Assembly: GCA_028713155.1 (NCBI GenBank)
Contig: JAQTPA010000005.1
Coordinates: 1-58,707, forward strand
DNA from: Candidatus Omnitrophota bacterium
GTDB taxonomy: Bacteria > Omnitrophota > Gorgyraeia > Gygaellales > Profunditerraquicolaceae
Direction: 5' to 3'
Length of the DNA stretch: 58,707 nt
In this document: piece by piece, positions 1 through 49,659 of the stretch
How positions within the stretch are numbered: the stretch's first letter is position 1
How the letters are laid out: every line of letters begins with the position of its first letter
Position numbers and translations under genes: made by a program
Notes under the pieces: generated by a model
Database searches by the model: none
What the model was told of the DNA's origin: nothing
Seen by the model: the letters and a program-made list of their open reading frames with translations, nothing else

Positions 1-480
1 GTTTTCAGGCAGGGCACCTTTGTTACCTGCCTGCCTTTTGATACCCGCAAGTCCATGCTGGATTTAGTCAAATACGCCGTGGAGATTGACATTGATTATC
101 CGGCTTTTCACCCGGTGGCTCCGGTCCCGGGAACGTATCTTTATCAGGAAACAAAGAAAAGCGGTCTTCTAGACGAAGATGATTTTTCAAAATATGACTG
201 GAGTACTCCGGTATTGAATTCAGAAACCGGGTTATCCAGGGCTGAATTCGCCAAACTGAATATTGAGCTGAACAAACGTTATGTGCTTTATCGGCCACAT
301 TGGTTGATCCGGGGATTGTTTTCCTCTCATCAGCACAAACGCAGATTATACCGGTGGTTTTTTATCAATACCCTGAAAGTTATGTTTACGCAAACCTGGG
401 GTATAATTATCGGCAAGGAAAAATATAAGGGTATTACCGGTTTTATGTATATGAAGAAACCGTCCTGGTATGATAAATGA
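1..480 (+). CDS. Cobalamin-binding radical SAM protein, C-terminal part (5'-truncated by window), BchE-like
   Basis: Frame 1 is open from base 1 (VFRQGTFVTCLPFDTRKSML...). It aligns by eye with the C-terminus of the 10308-11840 paralog (VFRQATF, DYPAFHP..PVPGT, YDWSTPV, KPxWYDK). Confidence 0.85.
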   Translation, partial: VFRQGTFVTCLPFDTRKSMLDLVKYAVEIDIDYPAFHPVAPVPGTYLYQETKKSGLLDEDDFSKYDWSTPVLNSETGLSRAEFAKLNIELNKRYVLYRPHWLIRGLFSSHQHKRRLYRWFFINTLKVMFTQTWGIIIGKEKYKGITGFMYMKKPSWYDK

Positions 481-1652
481 TTGAACTTATCCCTCCGACT
501 AATTTTGATGATGCCTTAATTGCTGAATTTAAGGCTATGGGGATAAGAGAGACATATGGAAAACTGGCGATCGATGCTTTGGGAGGAGGAAGGTTCGCCT
601 CGGGGCTCCCTAATATAAGCAGGAAAAGATTGGCCAAGCATGTCAAAAAACTCGACGATTCCGGTATAGATTTTAATTACATACTTAATTCCCCCTGTTA
701 TTCTGCTCAGGAATTTACCCGTTCAGGAAGGAAGGCTATTAGGGGATTGCTTGATTGGCTGGTTTCAAATGGCGTGAAAAAGGTTACCGTTACCATCCCC
801 TATATCCTGCAGATAATAAAAGATGCCTATCCTGGTTTGAAGGTTAGTGTTTCGACTTACGCCCAGGTTGATTCTTATCAAAAGGCCAGATATTGGCAGG
901 AGATCGGCGCTGATGAGATAACTTTGCTGGATACCTGCCTAAACAGGAATTTTAAATTGCTTAAAATTATCCGGGGCGGGATCAAGGTAAAATTACGGTT
1001 AATAGGCAATACCAGCTGCCTGCCCCATTGCCATCTTTTTCAATACCACGCATTGTTATCTGCCCACGGCTCACAAACAGCGTATTCAAATAAGGCTGGT
1101 TTTGCGGTAGATTATTGCGCGATTTATTGTAAATACCTGAGGCTGGCAAATCCCGTTAATTTTATATATTCGCAATGGATCAGGCCCGAGGACTTGGGGA
1201 TTTACGAAGAGGCCGGAATAGACGCGATAAAATTGATTGACCGCCGATGCTCAACCGCTACGCTAATCAATATCACCCGGAGTTACCATAAGAGAAGATA
1301 TGACGGAAACCTCCTGGATTTGCTTCCCGCTTTCCAGGGAAAATCACCTAAGAATCCGGGCAACCTTTTATTAAAAATAAAGTATTATTTCCATCCGTTT
1401 GAGAGCAATATTTTTAAGATAATGGAATTAGATAGGCAGATGAAAGGGCTGGATATCTATATCGACAATGCGAAGCTTAACGGTTTTGTCGCCGGCCTCA
1501 GGGATAAAGATTGTAATTACAGTTCTTGCCCGGAATGCGGTTACTGCAATAAAGTTGCCCTGGAAGTTATCCGCTGCGACAGCGGCTACCTGGAGAGGAC
1601 AGCCGGAATATACAAACGTATTCTTGAGAATATTATTAAAGGTAAAATTTAG
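477..1652 (+). CDS. Peptidase U32-family Fe-S protein (putative O2-independent hydroxylase), copy 1
   Basis: GGGR, FNYILN, NTSCLPHC..H..H..C, WIRPED, IKLIDR, YDGNLLDL and C-terminal CNYSSCPECGYC; ATGA overlap with the upstream gene. Confidence 0.85.
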   Translation: MIELIPPTNFDDALIAEFKAMGIRETYGKLAIDALGGGRFASGLPNISRKRLAKHVKKLDDSGIDFNYILNSPCYSAQEFTRSGRKAIRGLLDWLVSNGVKKVTVTIPYILQIIKDAYPGLKVSVSTYAQVDSYQKARYWQEIGADEITLLDTCLNRNFKLLKIIRGGIKVKLRLIGNTSCLPHCHLFQYHALLSAHGSQTAYSNKAGFAVDYCAIYCKYLRLANPVNFIYSQWIRPEDLGIYEEAGIDAIKLIDRRCSTATLINITRSYHKRRYDGNLLDLLPAFQGKSPKNPGNLLLKIKYYFHPFESNIFKIMELDRQMKGLDIYIDNAKLNGFVAGLRDKDCNYSSCPECGYCNKVALEVIRCDSGYLERTAGIYKRILENIIKGKI

Positions 1653-1675
1653 CCTGCTTAATCAGGAAAGATACC

Positions 1676-2698
1676 GTGATTAATATTGAAAGAGCGCTGG
1701 TAAGCAAACGTTTTATCAAAGCCGCAAGCCTATTCTTTCGTTATTCAACTATCCCGAAATTAATGAATCTACTCAAGGCCGAATACGAAAGGCTATTGCG
1801 CAGGTCAACCTTATCCAGCAGGCCTTATTTTATCAAGATTCAACCTACGAATATCTGTAATGCCGGATGCATGTACTGTTTGAAACAGGTAAAAGGCGAT
1901 GATTCGCCTCCGGGTAAAATGGCTTTAGGCGATTGTAAAAAAATCATCGATAGATTCAAGAAATACGCTTATCTCATAGGTTTCCAATATTCCGGGGAAC
2001 CTCTGGGCAATGAGTCCATATTTGAAATGGTTGAATATGCCCACCAATCCGGAATCGGCACTTATCTAAGCACTAACTTACAGGAAGTCAAAGACGGTGA
2101 TTGTGATAAATTGATTCTTTCGGGGTTGGATCTTTTAACTATTGCCATAGACGGCATTACGCAGGAGACTTATGGCAGATACCGCCAGAGAGGCGATATC
2201 GCTAAAGTAATCGAGAATATGCAAAACCTGATGTCAGCGAAAAAGAGGCTCAAAAAAATAAGCCCTTTCATCACCTTGCAATTTATCGTGCATAAATATA
2301 ACCAGCATGAAATCGAAGGCGTCAGGCAACTGGCTAAGAAAACCGAAGTGGATAATCTTGAGCTAAAGCCGATAGGGGCTATGGATAAAGCCATTCTCCC
2401 GGAGAACAAAAAACTATACCGAAGGATCTATGTTAAAAAGACCAGATTAAAGAGAAAAGCCTGCTGGTGGCTTTGGGGTGCGCTGGTTATTTTATGGAAC
2501 GGCAGGGTTCTTCCCTGTTGCCATATCGTAACGAGCAAGACAGAATTAAACGCTTTTACCGATGATATTTTTTCAATCATCAACAATCCTTTTAACCGGC
2601 AAGTCCGGGGGCAAAGCCGGCGGGAGGTACTTTCCGATGCTCACCCGTGTTACGGGTGTCTTGTCCCGTACGGAGGCATACTGCAACAAACGATTTAA
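1676..2698 (+). CDS. Radical SAM protein with SPASM/twitch domain
   Basis: PTNICNAGCMYC (Cx3Cx2C), GEP, STN; C-terminal CWWLW...PCC...CYGC. Confidence 0.9.
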   Translation: MINIERALVSKRFIKAASLFFRYSTIPKLMNLLKAEYERLLRRSTLSSRPYFIKIQPTNICNAGCMYCLKQVKGDDSPPGKMALGDCKKIIDRFKKYAYLIGFQYSGEPLGNESIFEMVEYAHQSGIGTYLSTNLQEVKDGDCDKLILSGLDLLTIAIDGITQETYGRYRQRGDIAKVIENMQNLMSAKKRLKKISPFITLQFIVHKYNQHEIEGVRQLAKKTEVDNLELKPIGAMDKAILPENKKLYRRIYVKKTRLKRKACWWLWGALVILWNGRVLPCCHIVTSKTELNAFTDDIFSIINNPFNRQVRGQSRREVLSDAHPCYGCLVPYGGILQQTI

Positions 2699-2721: not shown

Positions 2722-3882
2722 ATGTCCTATAAGTTAAAAAATGACACTATTGAGGTAATGCTGGAGACCTGGAAAAACCTCTATGCTAAAGACGGATTAA
2801 GGCGCTGCAGCAGGTGTCTGCTTCCGGAGACCACGCCCTATATCGCATATGACGCAAAGGGCGTCTGTAATTATTGCAAAAGATATTTGAAGGTCAGTGT
2901 CAAAGGCGAAAAAGAGCTAGAAAAAATTATTGCGCCATTTCGCAATAATAACGCCAGGAATAATTGTATCGTAGCGTTAAGCGGAGGGCGGGATAGCTCG
3001 TTTGGTTTACATTATGTGAAGAGAGTGTTGCATTTGAATCCCATTGCCTATACTTATGATTGGGGTATGGCTACGGATCTAGCGCGCAGGAACCAGGCCA
3101 AGATGTGCAGCGCGCTGGGGATAGACCGGATCGTCATCAAGGCTGACGTTAATAAAAAGCGCCGGAATATAAGAAGGAACGTTGAGGCTTGGTTAAAAAG
3201 CCCGGACTTGGGGCTGGTCCCGATATTTATGTCAGGGGATAAGCAGGTTATCTATAATGCCCGGAGGGTAAAGAGGCAGGCTGATATTAAATTGATGTTC
3301 CATGGTTTAGGCAATACCTTTGAGGATAGCCTTTTTAAAACAGGTTTTAGCAACGTTACTTTAGAGTCACCGATGATATATTGCGATATCTCGCTGCGTA
3401 GTAAGGTTAAATTGGGGTTATATTATGCGCAACGGTTTATGCAGAATCCGGGATTTATCAATAGTGCATTAATCGATGCTTTCCTGGGATATCTTTCTCT
3501 ATTTTTTCTTAAGCGGGATTATTATGATATCTTTCTGTATCATTTTATAAAATGGGATGAACAGGCAATAACTAAAACGCTAATCGAGGAGTATGCTTGG
3601 GAAGCCCCAACCGATACCTGCCTTACTTGGAGGGTTGATGACGGGACTGCGGCATTCTACAACTATATCTATATGGCGGTTGCCGGTTTTACTGAAAATG
3701 ATACTTTTCGCAGCTGCCAGGTTAGGGAAGGCCTGCTTTCGCGGGATCAGGCCATTAAGATTATAGAGAATGAGAATAAGCCGCGGATTGAAACTTTAGA
3801 ATGGTACGGCCGGACAGTTGGTTTTGATTGCGATGAAACTATACGGATTATAAATAGGATGCCTAAGCTATATAAAATATGA
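2722..3882 (+). CDS. N-acetyl-sugar amidotransferase-like PP-loop ATPase (WbuX/WbpG type)
   Basis: N-terminal CSRC...CNYC pair followed by the PP-loop SGGRDSS. Confidence 0.8.
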   Translation: MSYKLKNDTIEVMLETWKNLYAKDGLRRCSRCLLPETTPYIAYDAKGVCNYCKRYLKVSVKGEKELEKIIAPFRNNNARNNCIVALSGGRDSSFGLHYVKRVLHLNPIAYTYDWGMATDLARRNQAKMCSALGIDRIVIKADVNKKRRNIRRNVEAWLKSPDLGLVPIFMSGDKQVIYNARRVKRQADIKLMFHGLGNTFEDSLFKTGFSNVTLESPMIYCDISLRSKVKLGLYYAQRFMQNPGFINSALIDAFLGYLSLFFLKRDYYDIFLYHFIKWDEQAITKTLIEEYAWEAPTDTCLTWRVDDGTAAFYNYIYMAVAGFTENDTFRSCQVREGLLSRDQAIKIIENENKPRIETLEWYGRTVGFDCDETIRIINRMPKLYKI

Positions 3883-5057
3883 GATATTCGATACCGACGA
3901 ACTGGCAGGATAATCTAATCGACGGATTAATTGATTGCCAGGGTTCGGAATTATACGGAAAATTAAATAATGATATAATCGGCGGCGGCCGCGCATCAGC
4001 AATCCTGCCCCAGGTTTCCTTAAAGAAGGCCGAGCGCCATATCCTTAGCGCGCATCAAAAAGGGCTTAAATTCAATTATCTTCTCAATGGCACATGCCTA
4101 GGCGATATGCAATACCTGCAATCGCAAAAAAATAATATTTTAAAGATGTTGGATTGGCTTGTTTCGGCGGAGGTTGACTCTGTTACAATCTCTTCTGCCT
4201 ACCTTTACCGCCTGATAAGGGAGCGCGCCCCGAGGCTGAATATTTATGTTTCGGTCCAGGATAGCGTCAATAATGAATTGCAGATAAGACGATGGGATGA
4301 AATCGGCGTTGACAAAATAACTCTTTCCGTGCTGGATGCTAACAGGGATTTTAAACTGCTTAGAAGAATCAAGGGCAGGATAAAATGTGATCTACAATTG
4401 ATTGCTAATTTGAAATGCCTGCTGGGATGCCCTGCTTACCATTGCCATAGTAATTTGAATGCGCACAGCTCTCAATCGCAGCACATGCTTAAGGGCTACT
4501 TAATCGACTACTATACGCTCAAGTGCAATTATATACGTTTAAACGATCCGGTGGAATTAATCAAGAGTCTTTGGATCAGGCCTGAAGACGTGCATTACTA
4601 TGAAGAAACAGGCATCCATTGGCTTAAATTAGTCGGAAGGGAGATGGATTCAGCAAAGATCCACCTAATATTTAACGCCTATAGGAAAAGACGCTATGAT
4701 GGGAATTTGCTGGATTTACTACCGAATACCAAAAAAAGACTTTTTAGCTATAAAAAAATAAAGACCATTTTTAAATACTTTTTCCGGCCTGAGTATATTA
4801 ATCCGTTTATTCTGCTGCAGGCGCGCAATGTCTTTAAGGAGGAAGGGGTATATATTGATAACCGGGGCCTAGACGGCTTCCTGGACTATTTTTGGGAAGA
4901 AAAGTGCAATTTTATGTGCGGCCGGCAGTGTAGCTATTGCCATAAGATTGCCGGTCAGGTAATGACTATAGACCATAAGCATCTGGATAAAAGGATAAAA
5001 AACAGCAAGGTTTTTCTGGAGAATTTAATAAGCGGCCGGTTGTTTGATTATTTTTAA
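3879..5057 (+). CDS. Peptidase U32-family Fe-S protein, copy 2
   Basis: GGGR, FNYLLNGTC, NLKCLLGC..H..H..C, WIRPED, LKLVGR, C-terminal CNFMCGRQCSYC; ATGA overlap with the upstream gene. Confidence 0.85.
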   Translation: MRYSIPTNWQDNLIDGLIDCQGSELYGKLNNDIIGGGRASAILPQVSLKKAERHILSAHQKGLKFNYLLNGTCLGDMQYLQSQKNNILKMLDWLVSAEVDSVTISSAYLYRLIRERAPRLNIYVSVQDSVNNELQIRRWDEIGVDKITLSVLDANRDFKLLRRIKGRIKCDLQLIANLKCLLGCPAYHCHSNLNAHSSQSQHMLKGYLIDYYTLKCNYIRLNDPVELIKSLWIRPEDVHYYEETGIHWLKLVGREMDSAKIHLIFNAYRKRRYDGNLLDLLPNTKKRLFSYKKIKTIFKYFFRPEYINPFILLQARNVFKEEGVYIDNRGLDGFLDYFWEEKCNFMCGRQCSYCHKIAGQVMTIDHKHLDKRIKNSKVFLENLISGRLFDYF

Positions 5058-5074: not shown

Positions 5075-6097
5075 ATGAATATCAATAAGATTAAATTGTC
5101 TATCCCCGTTGATCGGAATTCTGACGCCGGACACTTTTTATCAGACGATAATATCGTCAATATATACGCTAAAATACCCGGTAATTTTTTGGAGAGCACG
5201 GGGGTCAAGGATAGTATTAACAGGTATGTCAATGCAGCGCATAATCATGGTATCAGTTTCACCTTTTTAATGGACGTTACCTGTTTGAATAACCTGGAGT
5301 GGACAAGGAGCGGTCAAAGGCGGATCAGGGTATTTCTGGATAATTTGGTATCTTGGGGAGTGGACGCGGTATCGGTTAGTATGCCGTATTTTGTGGAGTT
5401 AATAAAAAAACAATACCCTAAGGTAACTATTGAGATATCATCAAACGCCGAGGTTGATAATATTCAGCGTGCAAAGCGCTGGGAAGACTTGGGTGCCGAT
5501 ATAATCACTTTGGCGTCTTACAAGGTAAACCGTAATTTCGCTTTATTGGAAGGGGTCCGTAGTAATGTAAAATGTGACTTACAGTTAGTGGCAAACCACT
5601 GTTGCCTGAATAACTGCGTTAATCACGGTTTTCATGCAAATCTTGCAGCGCACCTGACCGGGCAATCTTTTGCGGTGGACAATGCCGGTATTTTTTATGG
5701 CCTTAAATGCCTGGAAGAGCGTTCCAGAACGGGGTTCGATATTATTTCTTCCCAATGGATCCGGCCGGAAGATATTAAGTATTATGAAGGAATCGGCATT
5801 AATAGATTGCAGCTACTCGGAGATAGTTTAAATAGCGGGGATTCCGTTGAAATTATTAATGCGTATAGCAAAAGATGCTACGCGGGGAACTTGATAAAAC
5901 TATTTCCTGATTTTCCCCGGTGCGCGCTACACCATGAAGGCGGAGCAAGCCCGGGGGTCTTTATCAATAATTCTGATTTAGACGGTTTTATGGAGCATTT
6001 TCTGGAAGGAAAATGCCGCGGGCTGTGCGGCGAATGCAGGTATTGTGAGGATATAGCCGGCAAAGTGGTTCATTTTGCAGGAGCACGGAATGGATAA
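5075..6097 (+). CDS. Peptidase U32-family Fe-S protein, copy 3 (shortened, divergent)
   Basis: NHCCLNNC..H..H..C, WIRPED and C-terminal CRGLCGECRYC retained; GGGR segment absent and the K..GR motif replaced by LQLLGD. Confidence 0.8.
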   Translation: MNINKIKLSIPVDRNSDAGHFLSDDNIVNIYAKIPGNFLESTGVKDSINRYVNAAHNHGISFTFLMDVTCLNNLEWTRSGQRRIRVFLDNLVSWGVDAVSVSMPYFVELIKKQYPKVTIEISSNAEVDNIQRAKRWEDLGADIITLASYKVNRNFALLEGVRSNVKCDLQLVANHCCLNNCVNHGFHANLAAHLTGQSFAVDNAGIFYGLKCLEERSRTGFDIISSQWIRPEDIKYYEGIGINRLQLLGDSLNSGDSVEIINAYSKRCYAGNLIKLFPDFPRCALHHEGGASPGVFINNSDLDGFMEHFLEGKCRGLCGECRYCEDIAGKVVHFAGARNG

Positions 6098-7142
6098 TCC
6101 AAAAAATATTCTTATTACCGGCGGCGTAGGATACCTGGGGGTTTACCTGGCGAATTATTTCTTGAAAAGAGGGTATGGCATACGTATTTTTGATATTTGC
6201 GATTATGCAGCAAGCGATTATACCGGCGCGGTTGAATACTTTAAAGGAGATATAAGAGATTATGAATCCCTCTTTCAGGCGGTCTGCGGTACGGATTTCA
6301 TCATCCATGCCGCTTCCGAGCTTCCGTTTAAAAAAAGGCGGGATATATTTTCTACTGGCGTTAAGGGTACAGAAAACCTTCTGAGAGCGGCTAAAGAAAA
6401 TAAAACTAACCGGTTGATTTATATGTCTTCAACTGCGGTATACGGCCTGCATAAAAATATGCCGATAGGCGAAGAGGCAACTTTCCGCGGCATTACTGAT
6501 CACGCCCGCAGCAAAATCTTAGCAGAACAATCCTGTGCATTATGCAGAAAGCAGGGCATGAATGTCACTATTCTAAGGCCAGCCCCTATTATCGGAGAAG
6601 GAAAATTAGGTTTTTTTCAGATTCTTTACGATTGGATTAAGGAAAATAGAAAGATCCCGGTTGTCGGATCCGGCCAAAACCGCTTTCAAATGTTAGAAGC
6701 CCAAGACTTATGCGAAGCAATCCAGGCAATAATAAATGCCCCCGCATATTTAGTAAATACTGATTTTAATGTTGGCGCTGCGGTATTTGGCACGATTAAT
6801 GAAGATTTAAATAATTTTATAAAAGAAGTAGGGAGTAAATCAAGGTTAATCCATTTCCCCGCTAATGGTATTAAGATTATATTGAAGATTTTTGAAAAAA
6901 TAAAAATCTCCTCTATCTATGAAGGAGTTTATGGCGTTATCGATAAGGATCTATATTTCTCGATTGAAAAGATAAACAGGGAATTAGGGTGTTTTCCTAA
7001 AAAAAGCAATGTTGACGCTTTAGTTAAAGGTTATCGCTGGTATATTGACAATAAAAATAAAAGAATAAAGCTATTTAGCAACGCGAATAATAGGAGTGTT
7101 TTTAAACAGGGGGCAGTTAATCTGATAAAAAAAGCCTTTTAG
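6090..7142 (+). CDS. Extended SDR, NAD-dependent epimerase/dehydratase family
   Basis: TGGVGYLG, GDIRD, HAAS, SSTAVYG; HARSK at the YxxxK position. Start moved from 6075 to ATG 6090 because AGGAG lies at 6079-6083. Confidence 0.85.
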   Translation: MDNPKNILITGGVGYLGVYLANYFLKRGYGIRIFDICDYAASDYTGAVEYFKGDIRDYESLFQAVCGTDFIIHAASELPFKKRRDIFSTGVKGTENLLRAAKENKTNRLIYMSSTAVYGLHKNMPIGEEATFRGITDHARSKILAEQSCALCRKQGMNVTILRPAPIIGEGKLGFFQILYDWIKENRKIPVVGSGQNRFQMLEAQDLCEAIQAIINAPAYLVNTDFNVGAAVFGTINEDLNNFIKEVGSKSRLIHFPANGIKIILKIFEKIKISSIYEGVYGVIDKDLYFSIEKINRELGCFPKKSNVDALVKGYRWYIDNKNKRIKLFSNANNRSVFKQGAVNLIKKAF

Positions 7143-10091: not shown

Positions 10092-10307
10092 CTACGGGAA
10101 AAGTAATTTTTTCCGCATCTTATTTTTAAAGAAGCGAGGGAGACTTATTTTCTACTTAGGCGGCTTAGGGTATGGTTTACGCGGCGCAGGGCGCCAATTG
10201 ACGGTTTTCATAAGTATCATTTTATATGGTTGCGGTTTGTATTCATATATAATTATGGCACCCGCTGTAAATCTTGTCAAGCTGTATTTACTTTCAGGTA
10301 TCAGAAA

Positions 10308-11840: not shown

Positions 11841-11849
11841 AGGTTGGAT

Positions 11850-17508: not shown

Positions 17509-17513
17509 TTAAT

Positions 17514-39669: not shown

Positions 39670-39743
39670 TTCTGGGCCGGCATCGAGAGAATATACGATG
39701 CTTAAGGAAGGGTAAAAAATGGAGTGCTGTGGGAAAGCCGGTA

Positions 39744-41432: not shown

Positions 41433-42779
41433 ATGAGAATATTGCTGATTTATCCGAATGTCTATCCATATGCTAATTATGTTCAGAAAATATATTTAGC
41501 TAAAAAGTTCCCCCTTGGCCTTATTAGCCTTGCTTCCTGTATTTTAAAAAATAAACATAAAGTAAAAATTTTTGATGCCTTGACTCTTAGGGCTTCCGAA
41601 AATGAGGTTAGCTCTGTGATAAAGGAATATAAGCCAGAACTTATTGGCATAGGTAATTTATCTTATTTTGACCTCGGTAGTGTCTTTAAGCTAGCAGATT
41701 TATCTAAGAAAATAAATTCAGAAGTTATCACGGTTGCCGGAGGCATCACAGAAACTTTTATGAGTAAGGAAATATTAGAATTCTGCCCTTCTTTGGATTT
41801 TATTATCAGGGGTGAAGGAGAATTGCCTTTTTTAGAGCTAATCGAAGCCTTAGAAAAAGGCAGCGGCCTAAAAGACATTAACGGCCTTGCCTATCGAAGT
41901 AACAGCGGGGTTGTAGTGCTTAAGAATACTTGTCAGTATAATGATTTCACCATTACCCCTTCGATGCTGAAAGATATTTTTATTAAACCGTATCGCCTCC
42001 CATATTTTTTGGGGAAAGTTAATTTGCTTATACAGGGTTCGAGGGGGTGCCCTTACAATTGTAGTTTCTGCATTGTGAATGAATTCTGCGGAAATCAAGT
42101 CAGATATAAAAAACCATCTCTTATAGCAGAAGAAATGGAAGCCTACTGTAATTATCTTAACGCCAAGAGATTTATTTTCGTTGATAGCACTTTTACTGTG
42201 AATAAAGATTTCGCGTATAGAGTAATGGAAGAAATATTAAAAAGAGGGCTGCATAAGAAGGTTAGATGGGGGTTTGGCACTCGTGTTGACTGCGTAGATA
42301 CCAAATTATTAAGAGCGTTAAAAAACTCCGGTTGTTACATCATAAGTTTCGGAGTAGAGTCTTCATTGCAAGAGGAGCTTAATGCATACAATAAGCGCAT
42401 CTTCCTGGATCAAACTATTGAAGCCTTTCGGCTAAGCAAGGAGAATGGCATTAAAACCAAAGCTACCGTAATTATTAATCAGTATAGATATAGGAAAATT
42501 AGCGAATTTGATAAGCATATAAAAAATACTATTTCGTTCCTGAACGTTCTTAAACCAATAAAAGTTGGTATCGCCCCATTAATACTGTATCCGCATAGCG
42601 AACTCTATTTTGATTATTTAAATCGAAAGCTTATCCAGCAAAATGGTTCAGATTTTCTCTTAAGGGGCCATCTTATTCCTTCAAAGTTTATAGCGGAGAA
42701 TTTAATTTTTAATAGAATCTTTAAAATGTACCTAAAAGTCCGTTTCAATATTTATCTGAATAGATTTAAAAATTTTTAG
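41433..42779 (+). CDS. Cobalamin-binding radical SAM protein
   Basis: MRILLIYP, PLGLISLAS, GEGE, SRGCPYNCSFC, FVDSTF, TRVD, FGVES. Confidence 0.9.
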   Translation: MRILLIYPNVYPYANYVQKIYLAKKFPLGLISLASCILKNKHKVKIFDALTLRASENEVSSVIKEYKPELIGIGNLSYFDLGSVFKLADLSKKINSEVITVAGGITETFMSKEILEFCPSLDFIIRGEGELPFLELIEALEKGSGLKDINGLAYRSNSGVVVLKNTCQYNDFTITPSMLKDIFIKPYRLPYFLGKVNLLIQGSRGCPYNCSFCIVNEFCGNQVRYKKPSLIAEEMEAYCNYLNAKRFIFVDSTFTVNKDFAYRVMEEILKRGLHKKVRWGFGTRVDCVDTKLLRALKNSGCYIISFGVESSLQEELNAYNKRIFLDQTIEAFRLSKENGIKTKATVIINQYRYRKISEFDKHIKNTISFLNVLKPIKVGIAPLILYPHSELYFDYLNRKLIQQNGSDFLLRGHLIPSKFIAENLIFNRIFKMYLKVRFNIYLNRFKNF

Positions 42780-42787: not shown

Positions 42788-43909
42788 ATGTGCGTTAAAG
42801 TCTTAGCAATAGCCAGGCATATCTTTGTAAATATTATCAGTCTTTTATTGCTAGCCTATGGAAAAAAGGCAGGTAGTAATACGATTGCTTATAAAACAAT
42901 CCGGCATACATTTCATAAGTTCATGAAGGGAGGAAGGTTACTCTTTGTTAAACTTGATCTTACCGAAAGATGCAATGGGAATTGCGAATATTGTTATTCA
43001 GAAAGAAGAGATATCGAGCCTTCTTTAGGTGAAATTGAAAAATTTTTTTCCCAGCTTAAAGGTCGGTTATGCGGGATAGATTTGATGGGTGGAGAGCCTA
43101 TGCTGAGAGAAGATATCAATGAAATTATAAAAGCAGCAAAAAAAATCGGTAAAATTTTTCGGGTCAGAATGTTTACGAATGGTACGCTAATCGATAGAAA
43201 GTCAGCAATTAACTTAAAAAATAATGGGCTGGGTGTCGCTTTCGTATCTTTTTATTCCAATGTTGCTTCTCTTCAGGATAGTGTTTCAGGATACGATGGA
43301 ACATTTGAGAAGAAAATAACCGCTATCAAAGAATTAGTCCGGGCTGGTATTAAAACTTACACATTTACTGTGCTGAATAAAAAAAATGTCAATCAAATAA
43401 CGTCAATTCGCACCTTAATAAGGGAACTCGGTGCAAGCCCTGTTTTTTCAAATCAAATACCCATCAATAATGAAATATCCAGTATTCAACTTACCCCTAA
43501 AGAAGTATATGGAGTCAAAGAGTCTTTAGGAAAAAATAGTAAAGCCCATATGACTATGGTTAATAATATGTTTGAGTTTGCGGAAAGAGTCTGCTTTGGA
43601 GGGTACTATCTTCTTTCAATTAAGGTCGATGGAGCAGTAACTCATTGCCCTTTTATATATGATATTGCTTTAGGCAATGCGTTTAAAGAGGATATTTTTG
43701 AGATATTTAAAAGAAGATTTTCTGTGAAGGCCTTCAGGGATGCCTATGGAATACCAGCTGAATGTTTACCTTGTGTATTCGTAAAATATTGCAAAGGAGG
43801 ATGTCGGGCTGGTAACGCCGATTACAGTAAGAAATCCTTTTCTTGTCAGGGGCCCTGGCAGGATGTTGAATTTGGGAAAATGTCATATTGTATCTCTCAT
43901 TGGTTTTAA
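42788..43909 (+). CDS. Radical SAM protein with full SPASM domain
   Basis: LTERCNGNCEYC, GGEPML, TNG, CFGG...HCPF...ECLPCVFVKYCKGGC. Confidence 0.9.
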   Translation: MCVKVLAIARHIFVNIISLLLLAYGKKAGSNTIAYKTIRHTFHKFMKGGRLLFVKLDLTERCNGNCEYCYSERRDIEPSLGEIEKFFSQLKGRLCGIDLMGGEPMLREDINEIIKAAKKIGKIFRVRMFTNGTLIDRKSAINLKNNGLGVAFVSFYSNVASLQDSVSGYDGTFEKKITAIKELVRAGIKTYTFTVLNKKNVNQITSIRTLIRELGASPVFSNQIPINNEISSIQLTPKEVYGVKESLGKNSKAHMTMVNNMFEFAERVCFGGYYLLSIKVDGAVTHCPFIYDIALGNAFKEDIFEIFKRRFSVKAFRDAYGIPAECLPCVFVKYCKGGCRAGNADYSKKSFSCQGPWQDVEFGKMSYCISHWF

Positions 43910-45193
43910 ATGTATAGAGACATTTTAACACCTTATTATTTATTAAAGGTATTTAAGCACCAGCGTTATTTAGGCAATGAACCTAAAAAAGCGCAGAATA
44001 AATTATTGTGCCGTTTAATAGCAGAGGCATATCAAAACTCGCCATTTTACCGGAAAATATTTGACGGGATAAAATTGACGTCAAAAGATATAAAAGAAAC
44101 TCAAGATTTAAAAAGACTGCCAGTTATTAATAGGAGGCAGGTAAGAGAAGCCCTGGAGCAAGGCAGTATATTAAATAGGAAATATCTAAAAGGTTCAATA
44201 TGCCGTAGCACTTCTGGTTCTTCCGGATTACCGCTTACAGTTGTATATGATATAAAGAGTTATGCGTATACTGATGCTATATATGTAAGGTCATTACTTA
44301 AGCAGGGAGTAAGAATAAATGACCGCATAGCCTATTTTTGGTATGAACCTTTTAGGAAAAGAAGCTTTTGGGAAAAAATGGGCATATTCAAAAAATTCGA
44401 AATTATATATACCGAAAACGAAAAATTACAATTTTCTCGATTAGAAAAAATCAAACCTTCGGTTATCATTTCTTTTCCTACCTTATTGTTGCCTTTATGC
44501 GAAAGAATAAAAAATAAGAAGGTTTCTTTTAAACCGAGAATCATAATTACCCATGGGGAGCTATTAACCGAAGATACAAGAAAGAGGATAGAAGAGGCAT
44601 TCAATGCCTGCGTTGTTGAACAATACGATTCCAATGAATTTAAAACGATAGCCTGGCAGTGTACGGAGGGCGGAAATTTTCATATAAATGACGACAGCGT
44701 TTTTATAGAAACTCTAAATGAAAATAACGAAGAAATAAAAGAAGGAGAATTAGGTAAGATTGTAATAACGGGTTTGTCTAATATAGCTATGCCGCTGATA
44801 AGATATTCAGTAGGAGATTATGGTATTAAGACAAACGAAATATGCCGGTGCGGAATAATTTCTTCTATGTTGAAGTCGATCGAAGGTAGAGGAGATGATT
44901 TTATAATTACTCCAGAAAAAGAAATAATTAGCCCGCGGCGCATAGGAGGGATTTTAGAGAAATTTGAAAGTATAAGAGAGTATAAATTTTTACAGGAAGA
45001 AATAACTAAATTTTCGTTGTTTATAATACCTTCCGGAAAATTTTCAAATGAGGATGAAATGAATATTCGCGAGGCATTAAGCAATGTCCTAAGTAAAGGC
45101 GCAAGATTATTTATCGAAAAAATACAATCTATGCCTAGAGGTAAAACAGGGAAGATAAAAGCGATTGAATCTAGAGTAAGCAGATATGGCTAA
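43910..45193 (+). CDS. Phenylacetate-CoA ligase-like (PaaK/CapK/F390 synthetase) adenylate-forming enzyme
   Basis: SPFYR, STSGSSG P-loop, HGELL, QYDSNE, MPLIRYSVGD, GRGDD, TGKIK. Confidence 0.85.
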   Translation: MYRDILTPYYLLKVFKHQRYLGNEPKKAQNKLLCRLIAEAYQNSPFYRKIFDGIKLTSKDIKETQDLKRLPVINRRQVREALEQGSILNRKYLKGSICRSTSGSSGLPLTVVYDIKSYAYTDAIYVRSLLKQGVRINDRIAYFWYEPFRKRSFWEKMGIFKKFEIIYTENEKLQFSRLEKIKPSVIISFPTLLLPLCERIKNKKVSFKPRIIITHGELLTEDTRKRIEEAFNACVVEQYDSNEFKTIAWQCTEGGNFHINDDSVFIETLNENNEEIKEGELGKIVITGLSNIAMPLIRYSVGDYGIKTNEICRCGIISSMLKSIEGRGDDFIITPEKEIISPRRIGGILEKFESIREYKFLQEEITKFSLFIIPSGKFSNEDEMNIREALSNVLSKGARLFIEKIQSMPRGKTGKIKAIESRVSRYG

Positions 45194-46121
45194 AAAGATA
45201 GAAGGCATAACTTTATATACCACTTCTGAGTGTAACCTGGATTGTATATATTGTTATGCCCGCGACCTGAGAGAATATAATAGTTGTTTTACGATGCCGG
45301 AATGGGAAGGTATTATTTCGCAGGCACGAACAATGGGAGCTAAATGGGTTATATTTGCCGGTCCAGGAGAGCCGTTATTGGATGATATGAACTTCAAATT
45401 GATCAAATACGCTAATGCTCTCGGAATGAAAAGCATACTTTTTACCAATGGTACATTGATTACCGAGCCTATCGCCGAAGATTTATTTTCAGCCAGTGTA
45501 GATATTACCGTTAAGATGCCTTCTTTTAATCCCCAAATATATAATTTATTATCAGGGTCTCAAAATTCCCTGCGATGGGTTGATTATGAATTTAAATATA
45601 AGGATACAGAACTAAAATATCCTATTCCGCTTTATCTGTATATTTTATTAAAAAAGTATAAAGGTGCCTCCAGGAGGAAGAAATGCTCTTTAAGAATAGA
45701 ATCCGTTATCACAAAATACAACCTTAGATGCCTGGTAGATATAGCTAAATTTATTCAGGCACATGGTTTGGGTTTTCTTTTTGAAACCCTGATTTTTAAT
45801 AATTCCAGGGATTTTGATAGGTTGATCCCTGGTGAAAAAGATTATCTGTTTCTTTTCCGGGAATTAAAAAAGTGCTTAGGCTGGAGGTTTATAGTTGGGC
45901 AAAATCAGTATAAATGCCGGATAAGAAGAAATCCCGTAATCCTGCAGAATGGCGATATTATGCTTTGCCTTGTTGAGGAGGGAAAGATAGGGAATATCCG
46001 GCAGAATAACTTAGGGGAGCTTTGGCAAAGAAGGTTATCTATAAAAGATGAAAGTTTAAAATATAAACGTTTTTGTGGGTTTCGGAACTGCTTGGGTAGA
46101 CAATCGTGTAATAAGAGGTAA
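45186..46121 (+). CDS. Radical SAM protein (twitch-like C-terminus)
   Basis: TTSECNLDCIYC, GPGEPLL, FTNG, C-terminal cysteines. Confidence 0.85.
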   Translation: MAKKIEGITLYTTSECNLDCIYCYARDLREYNSCFTMPEWEGIISQARTMGAKWVIFAGPGEPLLDDMNFKLIKYANALGMKSILFTNGTLITEPIAEDLFSASVDITVKMPSFNPQIYNLLSGSQNSLRWVDYEFKYKDTELKYPIPLYLYILLKKYKGASRRKKCSLRIESVITKYNLRCLVDIAKFIQAHGLGFLFETLIFNNSRDFDRLIPGEKDYLFLFRELKKCLGWRFIVGQNQYKCRIRRNPVILQNGDIMLCLVEEGKIGNIRQNNLGELWQRRLSIKDESLKYKRFCGFRNCLGRQSCNKR

Positions 46122-46132: not shown

Positions 46133-47515
46133 ATGAGCGGTACACCTTACGTTATACTTATTAATCCTCCTTTTGGATTTTCCTCTAATCCTGAACTTAC
46201 TGTTTCTTATCCGCTTGGTTTAATGTATATAGCATCCTTACTTGAAAAGAAAGGGGTAAAAGTAAAAATCATTGATTTTATTAATAATAGGGATACCCGG
46301 TTTATAGAAAATACCATAAAAAATAATAAAGCGGATATTTTTGGAATAAGTGTATTGACAAGTAATAGGTATGAAGCTTTTAAAATTGTAAAAATAATTA
46401 GAAAATTACATAAACAAAGTAAGGTTGTCTTAGGGGGGACGCATGCTACGCTTTTATACCAGCAGATCTTAGAAAACACAGATATTGATGCTATATTTTT
46501 GGGCGAGAGCGAACTTTCTTTTTTAGAATACTCAATGGCTTTTGGGCAAAATGGGGATGTTTCTCATATACCCGGCATCGCTTTTAAAAAAGCCAGCGGC
46601 GAAATAATAGCTAATCCTATTAAATGGGTAGAAGATATAGATACTATTCCTTTGCCTGCCTTTCATCTTGTAGATTTAGACAATTATAAGAATAAAAGGA
46701 ATGAAATAGACTTCCACATGCTTACTTCAAGAGGATGCCCTTTTTTTTGTAATTTCTGTAGCTTACCAGCGATACATAACGGTAGGTACAGGCTACATAG
46801 TGTAGCCAGGGTTCTGGAAGAGCTGGAATTAGTGAGCGGTTTCAAAAAGAATTGCCGGGTTATGCTGCATGATGATTTTCTCAGTGCGGCCGATAAGAGG
46901 ATGAGGGAACTATGCGAGGGGATAATAAAAAAAGGGATTAAACTAAAGTGGTCTATTCGTTCTAGGGTTGATACCGTAGATTTAGATACGCTTAAATTAA
47001 TGAGGAGTAGCGGTTGTGAGGAAATATTCTATGGGATAGAAAGCGGCAGTAGGGCAATTCTCCAGAGTATGAATAAAAGATTTAATATTGAAGATGCTAA
47101 AAATGCATTTAGTCTGACTAAAAAGAGCGGCATAAAAGCAATATGCTATATCATAGTGGGTTATCCGGGAGAGAATCACGGAACAGTAAAAGATACTCAA
47201 AAATTATTATTTTCTCTTGCTCCCGATAAAATATATTTCTCCCTGGCCGGAATTTTCCCCGGCACTACGTTGTATCAGCAAAGCATAAAAGACGGCGTAA
47301 TAAAAGATAGCTATTGGCTTAAGAACGGTAATCGGGTACCCCTATATACTAAAGATATGAGCTGTATTAATATGTTGATGTATGTTTATATAATAAGACT
47401 GTCTTTAGAAAGGGGGCTTATTAGAAAAATTATTTTTTTATTGAGGTCGATACCCCGAGAACTAAGTTTTGAATATAATGTATTAAAAAGCCTATTATTG
47501 GATAAAACTAATTAA
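46133..47515 (+). CDS. Cobalamin-binding radical SAM protein
   Basis: LINPP, YPLGLMYIAS, GGTHAT, GESE, SRGCPFFCNFC, SRVD, YGIESG, FPGT. Confidence 0.92.
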   Translation: MSGTPYVILINPPFGFSSNPELTVSYPLGLMYIASLLEKKGVKVKIIDFINNRDTRFIENTIKNNKADIFGISVLTSNRYEAFKIVKIIRKLHKQSKVVLGGTHATLLYQQILENTDIDAIFLGESELSFLEYSMAFGQNGDVSHIPGIAFKKASGEIIANPIKWVEDIDTIPLPAFHLVDLDNYKNKRNEIDFHMLTSRGCPFFCNFCSLPAIHNGRYRLHSVARVLEELELVSGFKKNCRVMLHDDFLSAADKRMRELCEGIIKKGIKLKWSIRSRVDTVDLDTLKLMRSSGCEEIFYGIESGSRAILQSMNKRFNIEDAKNAFSLTKKSGIKAICYIIVGYPGENHGTVKDTQKLLFSLAPDKIYFSLAGIFPGTTLYQQSIKDGVIKDSYWLKNGNRVPLYTKDMSCINMLMYVYIIRLSLERGLIRKIIFLLRSIPRELSFEYNVLKSLLLDKTN

Positions 47516-47518
47516 AAT

Positions 47519-48682
47519 ATGGCACTATTATTCCAACCTGCCTGTTTAGGTAAAATGAAATTGAAGAATCGCGTCATTAGGTCAGCGACCTTTGAAAATA
47601 TGGCGGATGCCGACGGCTCTCCGGACTTAGAGATATTAAATTTATACAAAGAATTAGCCGAAGGAGAACTAGGATTAATTATTACAGGCGCTGCTTATGT
47701 TAATAAAGAAGGCCAAATCCTGCCTTTACAAATTGGCGCGCATGACGATTATGTTATGGCAAAATGGGAAGCGACAATTAAATTAATGCATAGTTACGGG
47801 ACGAAGATAGCGGTTCAGGTTGCTCACGCAGGAAGATTGATTAATACTAGGTTTATGGACAGGCGCCATCTTCTATTTCCTTCTAAGGGAGCTAAATATT
47901 TAAGATTTTCTCCGGTTAGGGAGATGACAAAAGACCAGATATATAAAACGATCTCTGATTTCGCTAATGCAGCTAAACGTATAAAAAAGACTGGTTTTGA
48001 CGCCGTCCAGATTCACGCGGCGCACGGTTATTTGATTTCAAGCTTCCTTTCGCCTATAACTAACCGCCGCCTTGATGAATGGGGAGGGGATAGAGACGGA
48101 CGCTCCCGCTTCCTGCTAGAAATATATAAGGCCATGCGGGAAGCGGCGGGGGCAGATTTTCCAATTTTATGCAAATTAAGCGTAGACGATTTCGTAGAAG
48201 GAGGGATAGTCTTAGAAGAAATTATACCTGTTATCCAAAAGCTTTTTGAAAATGGACTTAATGCTCTGGAAATCAGCGGAGGCGAAATGTTTCAAATGTT
48301 TTTTCTTAGAGGTAAAGAGAAGTTAAATTTCGACTATTTCCTTGATTACGTAAAATACACTTTTATCAGCAAGATTTCTGGCTTAAAGAGAAAACCGATT
48401 TTTTTTCAGGAAGCCTATTTTTTAACTTATGCAAAAAGGATAAAACAAATAGTCAACATGCCATTGATACTTTCTGGCGGCATAAGGGACTTCTATGTTG
48501 CAGAGAAGATAATTGCTTCAGGATTGGCGGATTTTATCTCTCTTTCGCGTCCATTAATTTGTGAGCCTGGTTTGCCTAATAGATGGCAGGCGGGAGAGCG
48601 GCATCCGTCTGTATGCAGATCCTGTAACCGTTGCCTTTACGGATTAATAAAAGACAATAAGAAGTTAAAATGTTATTATTAA
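47519..48682 (+). CDS. NADH:flavin oxidoreductase (old yellow enzyme family)
   Basis: LKNRVIRSAT, QVAHAGR, QIHAAHGYLISSFLSP, NRRLDEWGG, C-terminal CRSCNRC. Confidence 0.92.
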   Translation: MALLFQPACLGKMKLKNRVIRSATFENMADADGSPDLEILNLYKELAEGELGLIITGAAYVNKEGQILPLQIGAHDDYVMAKWEATIKLMHSYGTKIAVQVAHAGRLINTRFMDRRHLLFPSKGAKYLRFSPVREMTKDQIYKTISDFANAAKRIKKTGFDAVQIHAAHGYLISSFLSPITNRRLDEWGGDRDGRSRFLLEIYKAMREAAGADFPILCKLSVDDFVEGGIVLEEIIPVIQKLFENGLNALEISGGEMFQMFFLRGKEKLNFDYFLDYVKYTFISKISGLKRKPIFFQEAYFLTYAKRIKQIVNMPLILSGGIRDFYVAEKIIASGLADFISLSRPLICEPGLPNRWQAGERHPSVCRSCNRCLYGLIKDNKKLKCYY

Positions 48683-49659
48683 ATTCTATTTCGGATAACC
48701 TTAAAAATTATTACCGGGTCAGAGTTCTCTCTAAAAAACCAATTCAAAAAATATTTTTAGTTCCGACATACCGCTGTAATTTAAAATGTGATTTCTGCTA
48801 TAGTAGGGGATTGGAGAATGAATTTAAAGAAGACATGAACAGAAAGAATTTGAATTCCGCTTTGAATTGGTTAAGATTAAATAGAATTAATGTTTTTGGA
48901 CTTCTTGGAGGCGAGCCCACAGAGTATCTTTATTTTGAAGAACTTATGGACTTGATTAAAATTTATAAGATGCGGGTTATTTTGCCTACTAATAATTTAT
49001 TTAATCCGTCTTTATTGAAGATTCTTCCCCGGAAATATATAGAGATTATGATCTTGAATTATAATAAAGAAATTTATAGCGAAGAACAACATAAAAGATT
49101 TAAAAATAATTTGGAAAGCCTAAAAAAAATTGGTTTTAAGCTAGGTTTAATGTTGAATATAAATAAAAATAATTATGACAAAGAAGCTATAGTTTTAGCG
49201 AAATATTTCAAATGCGATATCCGGTTTACTACTTCTTGTCCGGCCTATTTTAATAACATCTATGTTCCTTTAGATAAGTTGTCTACCTTCAAGGAAGTCA
49301 TGGTTAGTTTTGTAAAAGAATGCAAAGAGAATAAAGTCAAGGCAATGTTCTCTAGGCCCATAATTCCCTGCATGTTTAATAAACGAGATTTGAAAAACTT
49401 AAAGCCTTCTGCGGTAAGATATACCTGTAATATTATCCCTGTGGTTAATCCAGATTTATCTATTTTTGCCTGTCATAATATCTTTAAAAGATTTCCTAAT
49501 CTTTTGTCCTTTAAGAATCTGGGTGAACTTAATAAAAGGACCAATCTTTACGCAGAGCAATTAAGGAGAATACCGCTATTACCGGAATGCTTAGACTGTA
49601 AACTTTACTCAAACCATAAATGTCAAGGGGGCTGTCTTTCATATAAACAGTATCAATAA
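48670..49659 (+). CDS. Radical SAM protein with SPASM-like C-terminus
   Basis: PTYRCNLKCDFC, GGEP, ECLDC...CQGGC. Confidence 0.87.
   Translation: MLLLNSISDNLKNYYRVRVLSKKPIQKIFLVPTYRCNLKCDFCYSRGLENEFKEDMNRKNLNSALNWLRLNRINVFGLLGGEPTEYLYFEELMDLIKIYKMRVILPTNNLFNPSLLKILPRKYIEIMILNYNKEIYSEEQHKRFKNNLESLKKIGFKLGLMLNINKNNYDKEAIVLAKYFKCDIRFTTSCPAYFNNIYVPLDKLSTFKEVMVSFVKECKENKVKAMFSRPIIPCMFNKRDLKNLKPSAVRYTCNIIPVVNPDLSIFACHNIFKRFPNLLSFKNLGELNKRTNLYAEQLRRIPLLPECLDCKLYSNHKCQGGCLSYKQYQ

Follow-up and report, generated by a model that had tools for sequence, protein, structure and literature searches.

The question raised by contig JAQTPA010000005.1 from a Candidatus Omnitrophota bacterium (assembly GCA_028713155.1) is what could be built by a locus in which genes of radical S-adenosylmethionine (SAM) enzymes and of U32-family proteins are interleaved with genes of GT-C glycosyltransferases. 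The window analyzed, the whole stretch of 58,707 nucleotides, carries this locus as an island of 40 tightly packed genes (g01 to g40) in bases 1-49659, according to the listing of open reading frames (ORFs) and to Pfam scans, whose hits cover 48 window ORFs. An earlier interpretation of the letters alone (the sequence-only reading) had proposed an oxygen-independent pathway for a heavily modified envelope glycoconjugate or glycolipid. On balance, the locus is probably an Omnitrophota-specific envelope-glycoconjugate island of mosaic and variable content, in which glycosylation through polyprenyl-phosphate sugars and GT-C enzymes would be combined with anaerobic tailoring by radical SAM and U32 enzymes in the cytoplasm.

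Seventeen of the 40 genes encode radical SAM enzymes. As a rough figure, these make up some 2% of bacterial genes, and at this assumed genomic share the binomial probability of such an accumulation was ~1e-18. The nine B12-type (class B) genes, one of them cut by the window edge, the eight SPASM/twitch genes and the four U32 genes counted previously were all recovered by Pfam, NCBIfam, all-vs-all BLAST and motif checks. The B12-type set comprises eight full-length genes (g08, g09, g10, g11, g18, g23, g34, and g38) and the fragment g01, which shared 45% identity with the C-terminal part of g10 in the all-vs-all BLAST and is present as a full 521-aa gene in two related loci (L002 and L009). The Pfam B12-binding domain scored above its cut-off in six of the eight (g09, g10, g11, g23, g34, and g38). 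It was found below the cut-off in g08 and was not detected in g18, and both proteins can be aligned from end to end with their paralogs and the models of HpnJ and BchE. The three-cysteine motif is kept in all eight, g09 having the form Cx4Cx2C (CPHGKCKFC) and not the canonical Cx3Cx2C. A Pfam SPASM match was obtained for seven of the eight SPASM/twitch enzymes (g03, g12, g19, g26, g32, g35, g37, and g40); the eighth, g40, matched only Radical_SAM and Fer4_12. In cysteine maps, g03, g12, g19, and g26 have four cysteines in a twitch-like arrangement, whereas g35 has the seven-Cys pattern of SPASM. Since the paralogs of the island were merely 22-45% identical to each other (all-vs-all BLAST), recent tandem duplication was rejected, and the paralogs were regarded as old and not as an artefact of recent duplication.

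The class B enzymes reached no characterized class B equivalog (BchE, HpnJ, HpnR, PhpK, AprD4, GenK-type, and others), with 139-231 bits against cut-offs of 481-750. Below the cut-offs, their best NCBIfam scores were those against BchE, HpnJ, PhpK, and AprD4, and the SPASM enzymes scored best against generic maturase models. In the PDB, the class B profile was nearest to AprD4 (E 2e-50) and OxsB, and g19 was nearest to BtrN, DesII, and BlsE, with low identity in both cases; by these matches, the nearest solved radical SAM structures appear to be mostly sugar-modifying enzymes. Furthermore, neither an export signal nor a transmembrane anchor was predicted in any of the radical SAM and U32 proteins. 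This feature, together with their need for SAM and low-potential reductants, suggests that tailoring takes place in the cytoplasm, before the transfer by GT-C enzymes.

The locus had also been said to run on beyond base 1, and the left flank retrieved from near-identical and related contigs bore this out. In a 99%-identical contig (L002), the 521-aa version of g01 is preceded by GT2, GT4, GT-C, and SPASM radical SAM genes. A species-level relative is the Omnitrophota metagenome-assembled genome (MAG) STD1_150 from a landfill, with 92% identity, and the 92% relative L009 contributes one AsnB-type amidotransferase gene, one GT2 gene and one GT4 gene further left. An 81% relative (L089, JGI 3300029288 contig Ga0265297_10001028) adds another B12-type radical SAM gene upstream. 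As the flank contigs carry more of the same gene classes, the island is longer by ~18 kb to the left of base 1, with ~70 kb in total and at least 20 radical SAM genes.

The proposed carbohydrate and envelope context was upheld by the nucleoside diphosphate (NDP)-sugar short-chain dehydrogenase/reductase (SDR), the DegT protein, the ArnC-/AglJ-like GT2 enzymes, the GT-C enzymes with a WxDE motif, the CapK_C domain and the GT4, GT2, and AsnB genes of the flank. Domain scans confirmed three GT2 (g15, g25, and g29) and two SDR genes (g07 and g16), as well as the DegT, amidotransferase, sulfotransferase-like, methyltransferase, PaaK-like, and Old Yellow Enzyme (OYE) genes reported before. Five of the six GT-C genes announced by the sequence-only reading are certain, as PMT_2 scored above its cut-off in g14, g22, g27, g28, and g33, which have 7-9 predicted transmembrane helices; the acidic first-loop WxDE motif was found in g14, g22, and g33, and could not be clearly recognized in g27 or g28. 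The sixth, g21, is a probable GT-C enzyme: hhalign matched it weakly with the GT-C paralogs (E 7e-5, 63% probability), and searches of Pfam, NCBIfam, and the PDB gave no match. GT-C, GT2, SDR, and DegT genes follow one another in this order in g14-g17. Homologs of g36 in a U32-free Omnitrophota contig (L087) sit among GT-C, GT2, epimerase, and more B12-type radical SAM genes, with a phosphomannose-isomerase-domain gene (Pfam PMI_typeI_cat) adjacent to the g36 homolog; a metagenome scan with g36 alone retrieved no relatives. Related loci also carry polysaccharide deacetylase and UGM/amine-oxidase-like flavoprotein genes.

The four U32 proteins scored above the Pfam PF01136 cut-off of 22.4 bits, and in three of them the match spans only ~64 of the 233 profile positions. 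Their sequence profile matched PDB 5d88 (E 3e-17), and the AlphaFold2 model of g02 (pLDDT 93.8) had this same U32 structure as its top Foldseek match (E 4e-11, TM-score 0.76, target-normalized). Profile and model together show that the U32 TIM-barrel fold is present in the subfamily. Among 63 sequences, the cysteines C181, C218, C346, C354, and C357 were invariant, and C74, C185, and C351 were found in at least 90%. The four-cysteine [4Fe-4S] motif of most U32 families, Cx6Cx15Cx3/4C (PMC6747719), was not found in the subfamily, which has instead the spacing C74...C181x3C185...C218, an extra C-terminal Cx4Cx2Cx2C motif and the invariant residues H191 and H197. It may be equivalent to PepU32#6, a group of which little has been characterized. 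Of 1.84 billion cluster representatives, 841 fell in this small subfamily at E<=1e-30, and an exact-sequence look-up of g02 gave no match. In a neighbour-joining tree, which has no support values and is only indicative, g02, g05, g06, and g24 each had their own orthologs in other Omnitrophota, and the proteins linked to polyketide synthases (PKS) formed one clade. The tandem trio g02/g05/g06 is kept in more distant Omnitrophota relatives, with 57-73% identity. This conservation in tandem, together with the separate orthologs, suggests distinct roles or a heteromer.

Characterized U32 proteins are O2-independent, prephenate-dependent hydroxylases, and UbiU/UbiV stand in for flavin hydroxylases in the synthesis of ubiquinone (PMC6747719, PMC10990095). 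In cyanobacteria and Planctomycetota, alkylresorcinol derivatives are made by the aerobic operon of the hidABC type, with the order methyltransferase, FAD oxidoreductase and type III PKS (PMC10896814). The order methyltransferase, U32 and type III PKS was observed in Geomonas and Geobacter, and the U32 gene lies directly beside the PKS gene in ~12 of 20 loci from other phyla and within ~4 kb in the rest. Because the U32 gene takes the oxidoreductase position of hidABC, in the same manner as UbiU/UbiV replace flavin hydroxylases, the analogy provides good indirect support for an O2-independent hydroxylase function of the subfamily. By the same comparison, the U32/type III PKS operon resembles the alkylresorcinol operons of the hidABC/srsABC type and would be their oxygen-independent counterpart; no published description of it was found in full-text literature searches. 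A small U32 subfamily would thus gain a testable functional assignment, as the apparent anaerobic replacement of a flavin hydroxylase.

One example of this operon is that of Geomonas propionica JAEMHK010000009.1 (L008, 4452-10436), with the order B12-type radical SAM, methyltransferase, U32, type III PKS, B12-type radical SAM, and with overlapping stops and starts. The same operon type was observed in L054, L057, L058, L060, L061, L084 and ~13 other loci, from cultured Geomonas and many anaerobe MAGs.

The recurrence of the gene combination was analyzed with a profile of the four U32 paralogs and distant hits, which retrieved 503 relatives from a set of genomes in which each GTDB species is represented once. 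Seventy-eight loci of up to 21 kb each were kept, their ORFs were classed with hidden Markov models from the window's own paralogs, and neighbors were counted within 10 kb of a U32 gene. B12-type radical SAM genes were found in 23 of the 25 loci labeled Omnitrophota, GT-C genes in 18, both in 17 and type III PKS genes in none. The corresponding numbers for the 41 loci of other phyla (Desulfuromonadales, including four cultured Geomonas species, Planctomycetota, Myxococcota, Armatimonadota, and others) were 21, 0, 0, and 19. Hence, the combination of U32, B12-type radical SAM and GT-C genes is specific to Omnitrophota and not general to anaerobes; of the two outcomes named in the sequence-only reading, recurrence and scatter, the first was obtained, restricted to the phylum. 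The commonest immediate neighbor of the subfamily U32 genes was a B12-type radical SAM gene, and g23 was the most frequent best match for the B12-type enzymes of related loci. Up to eight B12-type genes were found in one 21-kb locus, and some loci, such as L046, alternate U32 and B12-type genes three times.

The remaining 12 loci are labeled "Planctomycetales" or "Paceibacterota," and most of those with B12-type genes look Omnitrophota-type. L026 and L028 (JAVHQB010000093.1, labeled Paceibacterota), as well as L013, L016, L018, L025, L032, and L044 (labeled uncultured Planctomycetales), are typical Omnitrophota-type U32/B12-type radical SAM/GT-C loci. These labels may reflect mis-binning or coarse taxonomy.

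The glycoconjugate explanation can be laid out as a series of steps, the first of which are supported by the sequences. The SDR g16 and the DegT protein g17 would make an amino or deoxy nucleotide sugar in the cytoplasm. Sugars would be amidated or acylated by the WbuX-like g04, by the AsnB-type amidotransferase encoded just upstream of the window and by the CapK-like g36. GT4 and GT2 enzymes would build the cytoplasmic part, the GT2 enzymes g15 and g25 would load sugars on polyprenyl phosphate, and five to seven GT-C enzymes would transfer sugars to the acceptor at the outer face of the inner membrane. The ~20 radical SAM and four U32 enzymes may act in the cytoplasm on nucleotide- or lipid-linked intermediates: the class B enzymes by C-methylation, deoxygenation or rearrangement, the twitch/SPASM enzymes by oxidation or epimerization, and the U32 proteins by O2-independent hydroxylation, probably as UbiU-UbiV-like heteromers. 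The oxygen-independent chemistry proposed in the sequence-only reading was therefore retained, on the strength of the radical SAM and U32 enzymes. Additionally, lineages may exchange island segments and so obtain different surface structures. Omnitrophota are widespread, ultra-small and largely uncultured anaerobes, some of them predatory or host-dependent, and the island is probably a major determinant of their surface chemistry.

A more specific proposal is advanced only tentatively, and we regard it as rather doubtful. The paired class B radical SAM and U32 enzymes might constitute a general anaerobic toolkit for C-H methylation and hydroxylation, with sugars linked to lipids or nucleotides, or else an attached aromatic group, as substrates. 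The product would be a new Omnitrophota-specific class of heavily C-methylated, hydroxylated and deoxygenated glycoconjugates, with serotype-like swapping of segments. If this were true, U32 hydroxylases would be extended beyond quinone and RNA substrates.

Several results weigh against the glycoconjugate explanation. None of the 30 island proteins scanned against NCBIfam release 20 reached a curated cut-off, and consequently every specific activity is deduced from superfamily membership. The left end of the island was not reached, since three successive flank contigs all end inside cluster-type genes. No family match to a GtrA/ArnE/ArnF-type flippase was obtained in the window, where g30 can be put forward as a lipid-sugar flippase only as a guess, and neither an initiating phosphoglycosyltransferase nor Wzx/Wzy, WaaL, or Wzm/Wzt was found among the 48 window ORFs or in the sampled left flank. 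The top NCBIfam similarities of the B12-type enzymes are BchE and HpnJ, with tetrapyrrole and hopanoid substrates. The known U32 substrates are all aromatic or heteroaromatic rings and no sugars, the PKS-linked sister clade is tied to phenolic lipids, and genes for an arylsulfotransferase (ASST)-like protein and an OYE are also in the cluster; taken together, these three points suggest that a non-sugar moiety may be the substrate of the U32 proteins and of some radical SAM enzymes.

The alternative that survives best is accordingly a glycolipid or phenolic lipid, and we consider it unlikely. The radical SAM and U32 enzymes would here tailor a lipid or aromatic aglycone by hydroxylation, C-methylation, cyclization or reduction, with scaffold genes located elsewhere, and the sugars would be attached afterward. 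In its favor, the same U32 subfamily is linked to type III PKS and methyltransferase genes in other phyla, and characterized U32 proteins hydroxylate aromatic rings; the best NCBIfam scores of the B12-type enzymes include HpnR and a "ladderane" lipid enzyme besides BchE and HpnJ; g07 resembles HpnA, OleD, and 3beta-HSD; the OYE g39 and the ASST-like g20 (phenol sulfotransfer) are present; and phytoene-desaturase/amine-oxidase-like genes occur in related loci. Nevertheless, no PKS, fatty acid synthase or acyl carrier protein, prenyltransferase or cyclase gene was found in the window, in the ~18 kb of left flank or in the 25 Omnitrophota loci, the similarities to lipid families are all far below cut-off, and the nearest solved structures are those of sugar-modifying radical SAM enzymes. 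The absence of nonribosomal peptide synthetase, PKS and squalene-hopene cyclase domains, already claimed before, was verified in all window ORFs of at least 100 aa. A ladderane, hopanoid or glycerol dialkyl glycerol tetraether lipid cluster was rejected, with no scaffold genes and similarities below threshold.

The second alternative, which we consider improbable, is that independent modules, each of a GT2/GT-C pair and a few tailoring enzymes, have accumulated in one hypervariable envelope locus and decorate lipopolysaccharide, peptidoglycan-linked polymers or proteins. The comparison with the closest long-contig species, JBAZOC010000003.1 (loci L029 and L085), bears on it from both sides. 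Between species, g02-g30 keep their order, and g04-g30 are collinear in this relative, in which g20 is missing (g19 stands directly before g21) and an extra B12-type radical SAM gene follows g11. Past g30, the lone recognizable match was a GT-C gene 47% identical to g33, at the end of the locus, and g31-g40 appear not to be conserved there. The dN/dS values (Nei-Gojobori) were 0.09-0.21 for all 22 ortholog pairs, indicating purifying selection and functional genes. The dS values were 0.26-0.53 across g02-g25 and jumped to 1.0-1.9 in g26-g29 (30682-36719, with two GT-C genes), a step which indicates that this block, in a locus that is collinear otherwise, is a more distant allele acquired by exchange. 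The sole sizeable non-coding stretch of the island, a gap of 643 bp with a GC content of 0.32, splits g01-g30 from the lower-GC g31-g40; it holds no ORF of at least 40 aa and no Rfam family. A module of the g36-g38 type without any U32 gene was found in L087, and gene content varies widely among Omnitrophota loci.

The gap and GC shift, the missing counterparts in the nearest relative, the dS step, the U32-free module and the varying gene content all favor such an accumulation. Against it stand the operon-like packing on one strand, with 12 overlapping junctions, and the conservation across species of the g02-g30 order and of the U32 trio; moreover, this alternative overlaps with the glycoconjugate explanation rather than excluding it. 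The mosaicism, a GC content lower than that of the flank and the AT-rich gap form the pattern of a recombining surface-structure locus. The claim of one cluster with one pathway was therefore only partly right: tight packing and the collinear g02-g30 agree with it, and the absence of g20, the diverged g26-g29, the unconserved g31-g40 and the U32-free module do not.

Finally, modification of a ribosomal peptide or large surface protein (epimerization, C-methylation, cross-links) by the SPASM and B12-type enzymes, with O-glycosylation by the PMT_2 GT-C enzymes, is very improbable: SPASM radical SAM enzymes and B12-dependent C-methyltransferases are characteristic of pathways for ribosomally made peptides with post-translational modifications (RiPPs), the PMT_2 family includes protein O-mannosyltransferases, sub-threshold NCBIfam matches to RiPP maturases (ApyD, the rSAM_ocin_1 family, and sactipeptide maturases) were obtained and Omnitrophota encode giant surface proteins, but a RiPP cluster was rejected because there was neither a plausible precursor ORF in any intergenic gap nor a match to PqqD/RiPP recognition elements, the SPASM proteins are short, with 16-75 residues before Cx3Cx2C, no leader peptidase or RiPP exporter was found, and the nucleotide-sugar and polyprenyl-phosphate-sugar genes would be left unexplained.

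The features of the island are listed in Table 1. As described previously, all genes but one share a strand: the exception, g08, is a minus-strand gene and the other 39 genes are on the plus strand. Most gaps are shorter than 40 bp.

Table 1. Features of the island, with positions in the window.
Feature	Position	Strand	Description
g01	1..480	+	3' end (C-terminal 160 codons) of B12-binding radical SAM, cut by window edge; frame open from base 1
g02	477..1652	+	U32-family Fe-S protein, divergent subfamily; Pfam PF01136, 36.5 bits
g03	1676..2698	+	Twitch-type radical SAM; Radical_SAM + SPASM; Cx3Cx2C at residue 61; C-terminal Cys 263, 281, 325, 328
g04	2722..3882	+	WbuX-like N-acetyl-sugar amidotransferase (PP-loop); NCBIfam TIGR03573 125 bits, below 203-bit cut-off
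g05	3879..5057	+	U32 paralog; Pfam PF01136, 37.8 bits; 39% identity with g02; own Omnitrophota orthologs
g06	5075..6097	+	U32 paralog, short form; Pfam PF01136, 32.5 bits; own orthologs
g07	6075..7142	+	Extended SDR, 3beta-HSD/HpnA/OleD-like; Pfam Epimerase + 3Beta_HSD; NCBIfam all below cut-off
g08	7144..8589	-	Class-B-like radical SAM; B12-binding below cut-off; HpnJ, BchE, PhpK, AprD4 139-150 bits, below cut-off
g09	8733..10091	+	B12-binding radical SAM, Cx4Cx2C variant
g10	10230..11840	+	B12-binding radical SAM; BchE 215 bits, 481-bit cut-off
g11	11844..13271	+	B12-binding radical SAM; 41% identity with g23
g12	13306..14337	+	Twitch-type radical SAM; paralog of g03 (44%)
g13	14462..15142	+	TPR protein, N-terminal hydrophobic anchor or signal
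g14	15194..16789	+	GT-C glycosyltransferase (PMT_2), WFDE loop-1 motif
g15	16795..17508	+	GT2, polyprenyl-phosphate sugar synthase-like; top NCBIfam match ArnC 138 bits, below cut-off
g16	17505..18482	+	NDP-sugar epimerase/4,6-dehydratase-type SDR
g17	18448..19584	+	DegT/PseC/ArnB-type sugar aminotransferase; Pfam 382 bits; PseC 307, ArnB 276 bits, both below cut-off
g18	19594..20976	+	Class B radical SAM
g19	20966..22060	+	Twitch-type radical SAM; top PDB match for auxiliary domain BtrN; also DesII, BlsE
g20	22006..23472	+	ASST-like beta-propeller, N-terminal transmembrane segments
g21	23486..25642	+	718-aa membrane protein, ~9 transmembrane helices; probable GT-C
g22	25664..27289	+	GT-C (PMT_2), WHDE motif
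g23	27308..28825	+	B12-binding radical SAM directly upstream of U32 g24
g24	28786..29970	+	U32 paralog; Pfam PF01136, 39.7 bits
g25	30006..30716	+	GT2, polyprenyl/dolichyl-phosphate hexose synthase-like; NCBIfam DPhHxTase 121, AglJ 112, PpgS 67 bits, below cut-off
g26	30682..31692	+	Twitch/SPASM radical SAM
g27	31694..33703	+	GT-C (PMT_2), fast-diverging allele; 62% aa identity, dS 1.66 to relative
g28	33693..35723	+	GT-C (PMT_2), fast-diverging allele
g29	35748..36719	+	GT2 (processive/exopolysaccharide-type)
g30	36823..37329	+	Small membrane protein, 3-4 predicted transmembrane helices; no Pfam match; 84% identity in L029
Gap	37330..37971		AT-rich, non-coding
g31	37972..38646	+	SAM-dependent methyltransferase
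g32	38648..39580	+	Radical SAM, partial SPASM domain
g33	39729..41405	+	GT-C (PMT_2), WYDE motif
g34	41433..42779	+	B12-binding radical SAM
g35	42788..43909	+	Full SPASM radical SAM, 7 C-terminal Cys
g36	43910..45193	+	CapK/PaaK-like adenylate-forming enzyme; NCBIfam all below cut-off; homologs with Pfam CapK_C, PF27533
g37	45186..46121	+	SPASM radical SAM; ortholog adjoins g36 ortholog in L087
g38	46133..47515	+	B12-binding radical SAM; 58% ortholog in L087
g39	47519..48682	+	OYE-family flavin oxidoreductase
g40	48670..49659	+	Radical SAM, Cys-rich C-terminus; final island gene

The right end of the island is probably at 49659. After g40 there is an AT-rich gap of 83 bp, followed by a rise in GC and by a flank with an ABC ATPase, a CobW-type GTPase, an Fe-S-domain protein, a T2SSE ATPase, tadA, dnaX, recR, an ABC-F gene and two tRNAs; the GC content of the island is below that of this housekeeping flank. 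At the Rfam gathering thresholds, no riboswitch or other RNA was detected in the island, and these two downstream tRNAs were the only hits. Homologs of the U32 protein g02 carry Candidatus Omnitrophica or Omnitrophota names.

Some further observations were made in and around the island. The first flank genes, g41-g44 (49743-52412), encode an ABC ATPase that lacks a neighboring permease, a GTPase of the CobW/HypB/UreG type and two small proteins, one with an Fe-S domain and one in the membrane, and they could be a possible metal, cobamide or Fe-S supply; a homolog of g44 (41%) also adjoins the related cluster of L087. At 53945-54602 of the window, a tRNA-Arg(ACG) gene lies 22 bp upstream of tadA (g46), and a tRNA-Ser(GCT) gene follows tadA; enzymes of the TadA family deaminate A34 of tRNA-Arg(ACG). 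The gap 37330-37971 contains promoter-like and terminator-like patterns, which are not informative. On the other side, bases 1-7755 of L089, upstream of the island, encode two proteins: a 1152-aa fusion in which B12-binding, radical SAM, and SPASM domains are joined, and an ABC_tran-containing protein longer than 1139 aa.

NCBIfam and literature searches agreed with the earlier statement that no characterized pathway matches the locus, full-text searches having retrieved no described pathway for it. A 2026 survey of 176 complete Omnitrophota genomes reports giant surface proteins and, in the passages searched, no such cluster (bioRxiv 10.64898/2026.06.07.730766). With ~20 genes in ~70 kb, the island is, to our knowledge, among the densest known concentrations of radical SAM genes. 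As none of them can be assigned to a characterized family, it constitutes a rich source of new enzymes for anaerobic C-H functionalization.

Among the known systems, the Arn system (ArnC-ArnE/F-ArnT with ArnA/ArnB) and the three-component periplasmic glycosylation by GtrA/GtrB/GtrC share with the island the pairing of a GT2 polyprenyl-phosphate sugar synthase with a GT-C transferase. The genes g14-g17, with an SDR and a DegT gene beside the GT2 gene g15 and the GT-C gene g14, mirror the lipid A logic of ArnA (C-terminal domain), ArnB, ArnC, and ArnT. However, the island has five to seven GT-C enzymes and not one, it has no recognizable GtrA/ArnEF flippase, its similarities lie below the NCBIfam cut-offs, and its glycosylation genes are interleaved with ~20 radical SAM and four U32 genes; we know of no Gtr or Arn system that contains either of these. 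The features of a Wzx/Wzy- or ABC-dependent O-antigen or capsule system were not found in the window or the sampled left flank, the ABC ATPase of g41 having no permease beside it.

The radical SAM enzymes are best compared with those that tailor sugars, BtrN, AprD4/AprD3, OxsB, DesII, BlsE, and GenK/GenD1, among which are the best PDB matches of the class B profile and of g19. The four auxiliary cysteines of g03, g12, and g19 have the spacing 18/44-48/3, close to what we take to be that of BtrN, and g08 lies tail-to-tail with the SDR gene g07, which is reminiscent of the AprD4/AprD3 pair. The differences are the low identities, with no equivalog threshold reached, and the setting, since pathways of the BtrN/AprD4 type belong to aerobic actinomycete secondary metabolism, without GT-C enzymes or lipid-linked donors. 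HpnJ, HpnR, HpnA, and BchE are the top NCBIfam similarities of the class B enzymes and of the SDR g07 and share the anaerobic radical functionalization of C-H bonds, but the matches gave 80-231 bits where 481-650 would be required by the cut-offs, and the island has no squalene-hopene cyclase, HpnH or tetrapyrrole gene.

With UbiU-UbiV, TrhP, and RlhA, the U32 proteins have in common the barrel, conserved cysteines suited to Fe-S binding, paralogs encoded side by side and an anaerobic setting; they differ in the cysteine spacing and in a context of glycan genes instead of quinone or RNA modification. The sister-clade operons share the gene order of hidABC/srsABC, with the U32 gene in the place of the flavin oxidoreductase, whereas the window and all 25 Omnitrophota loci have no type III PKS. 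Hence, the comparison with hidABC informs on the chemistry of the U32 subfamily and not on the product of the island.

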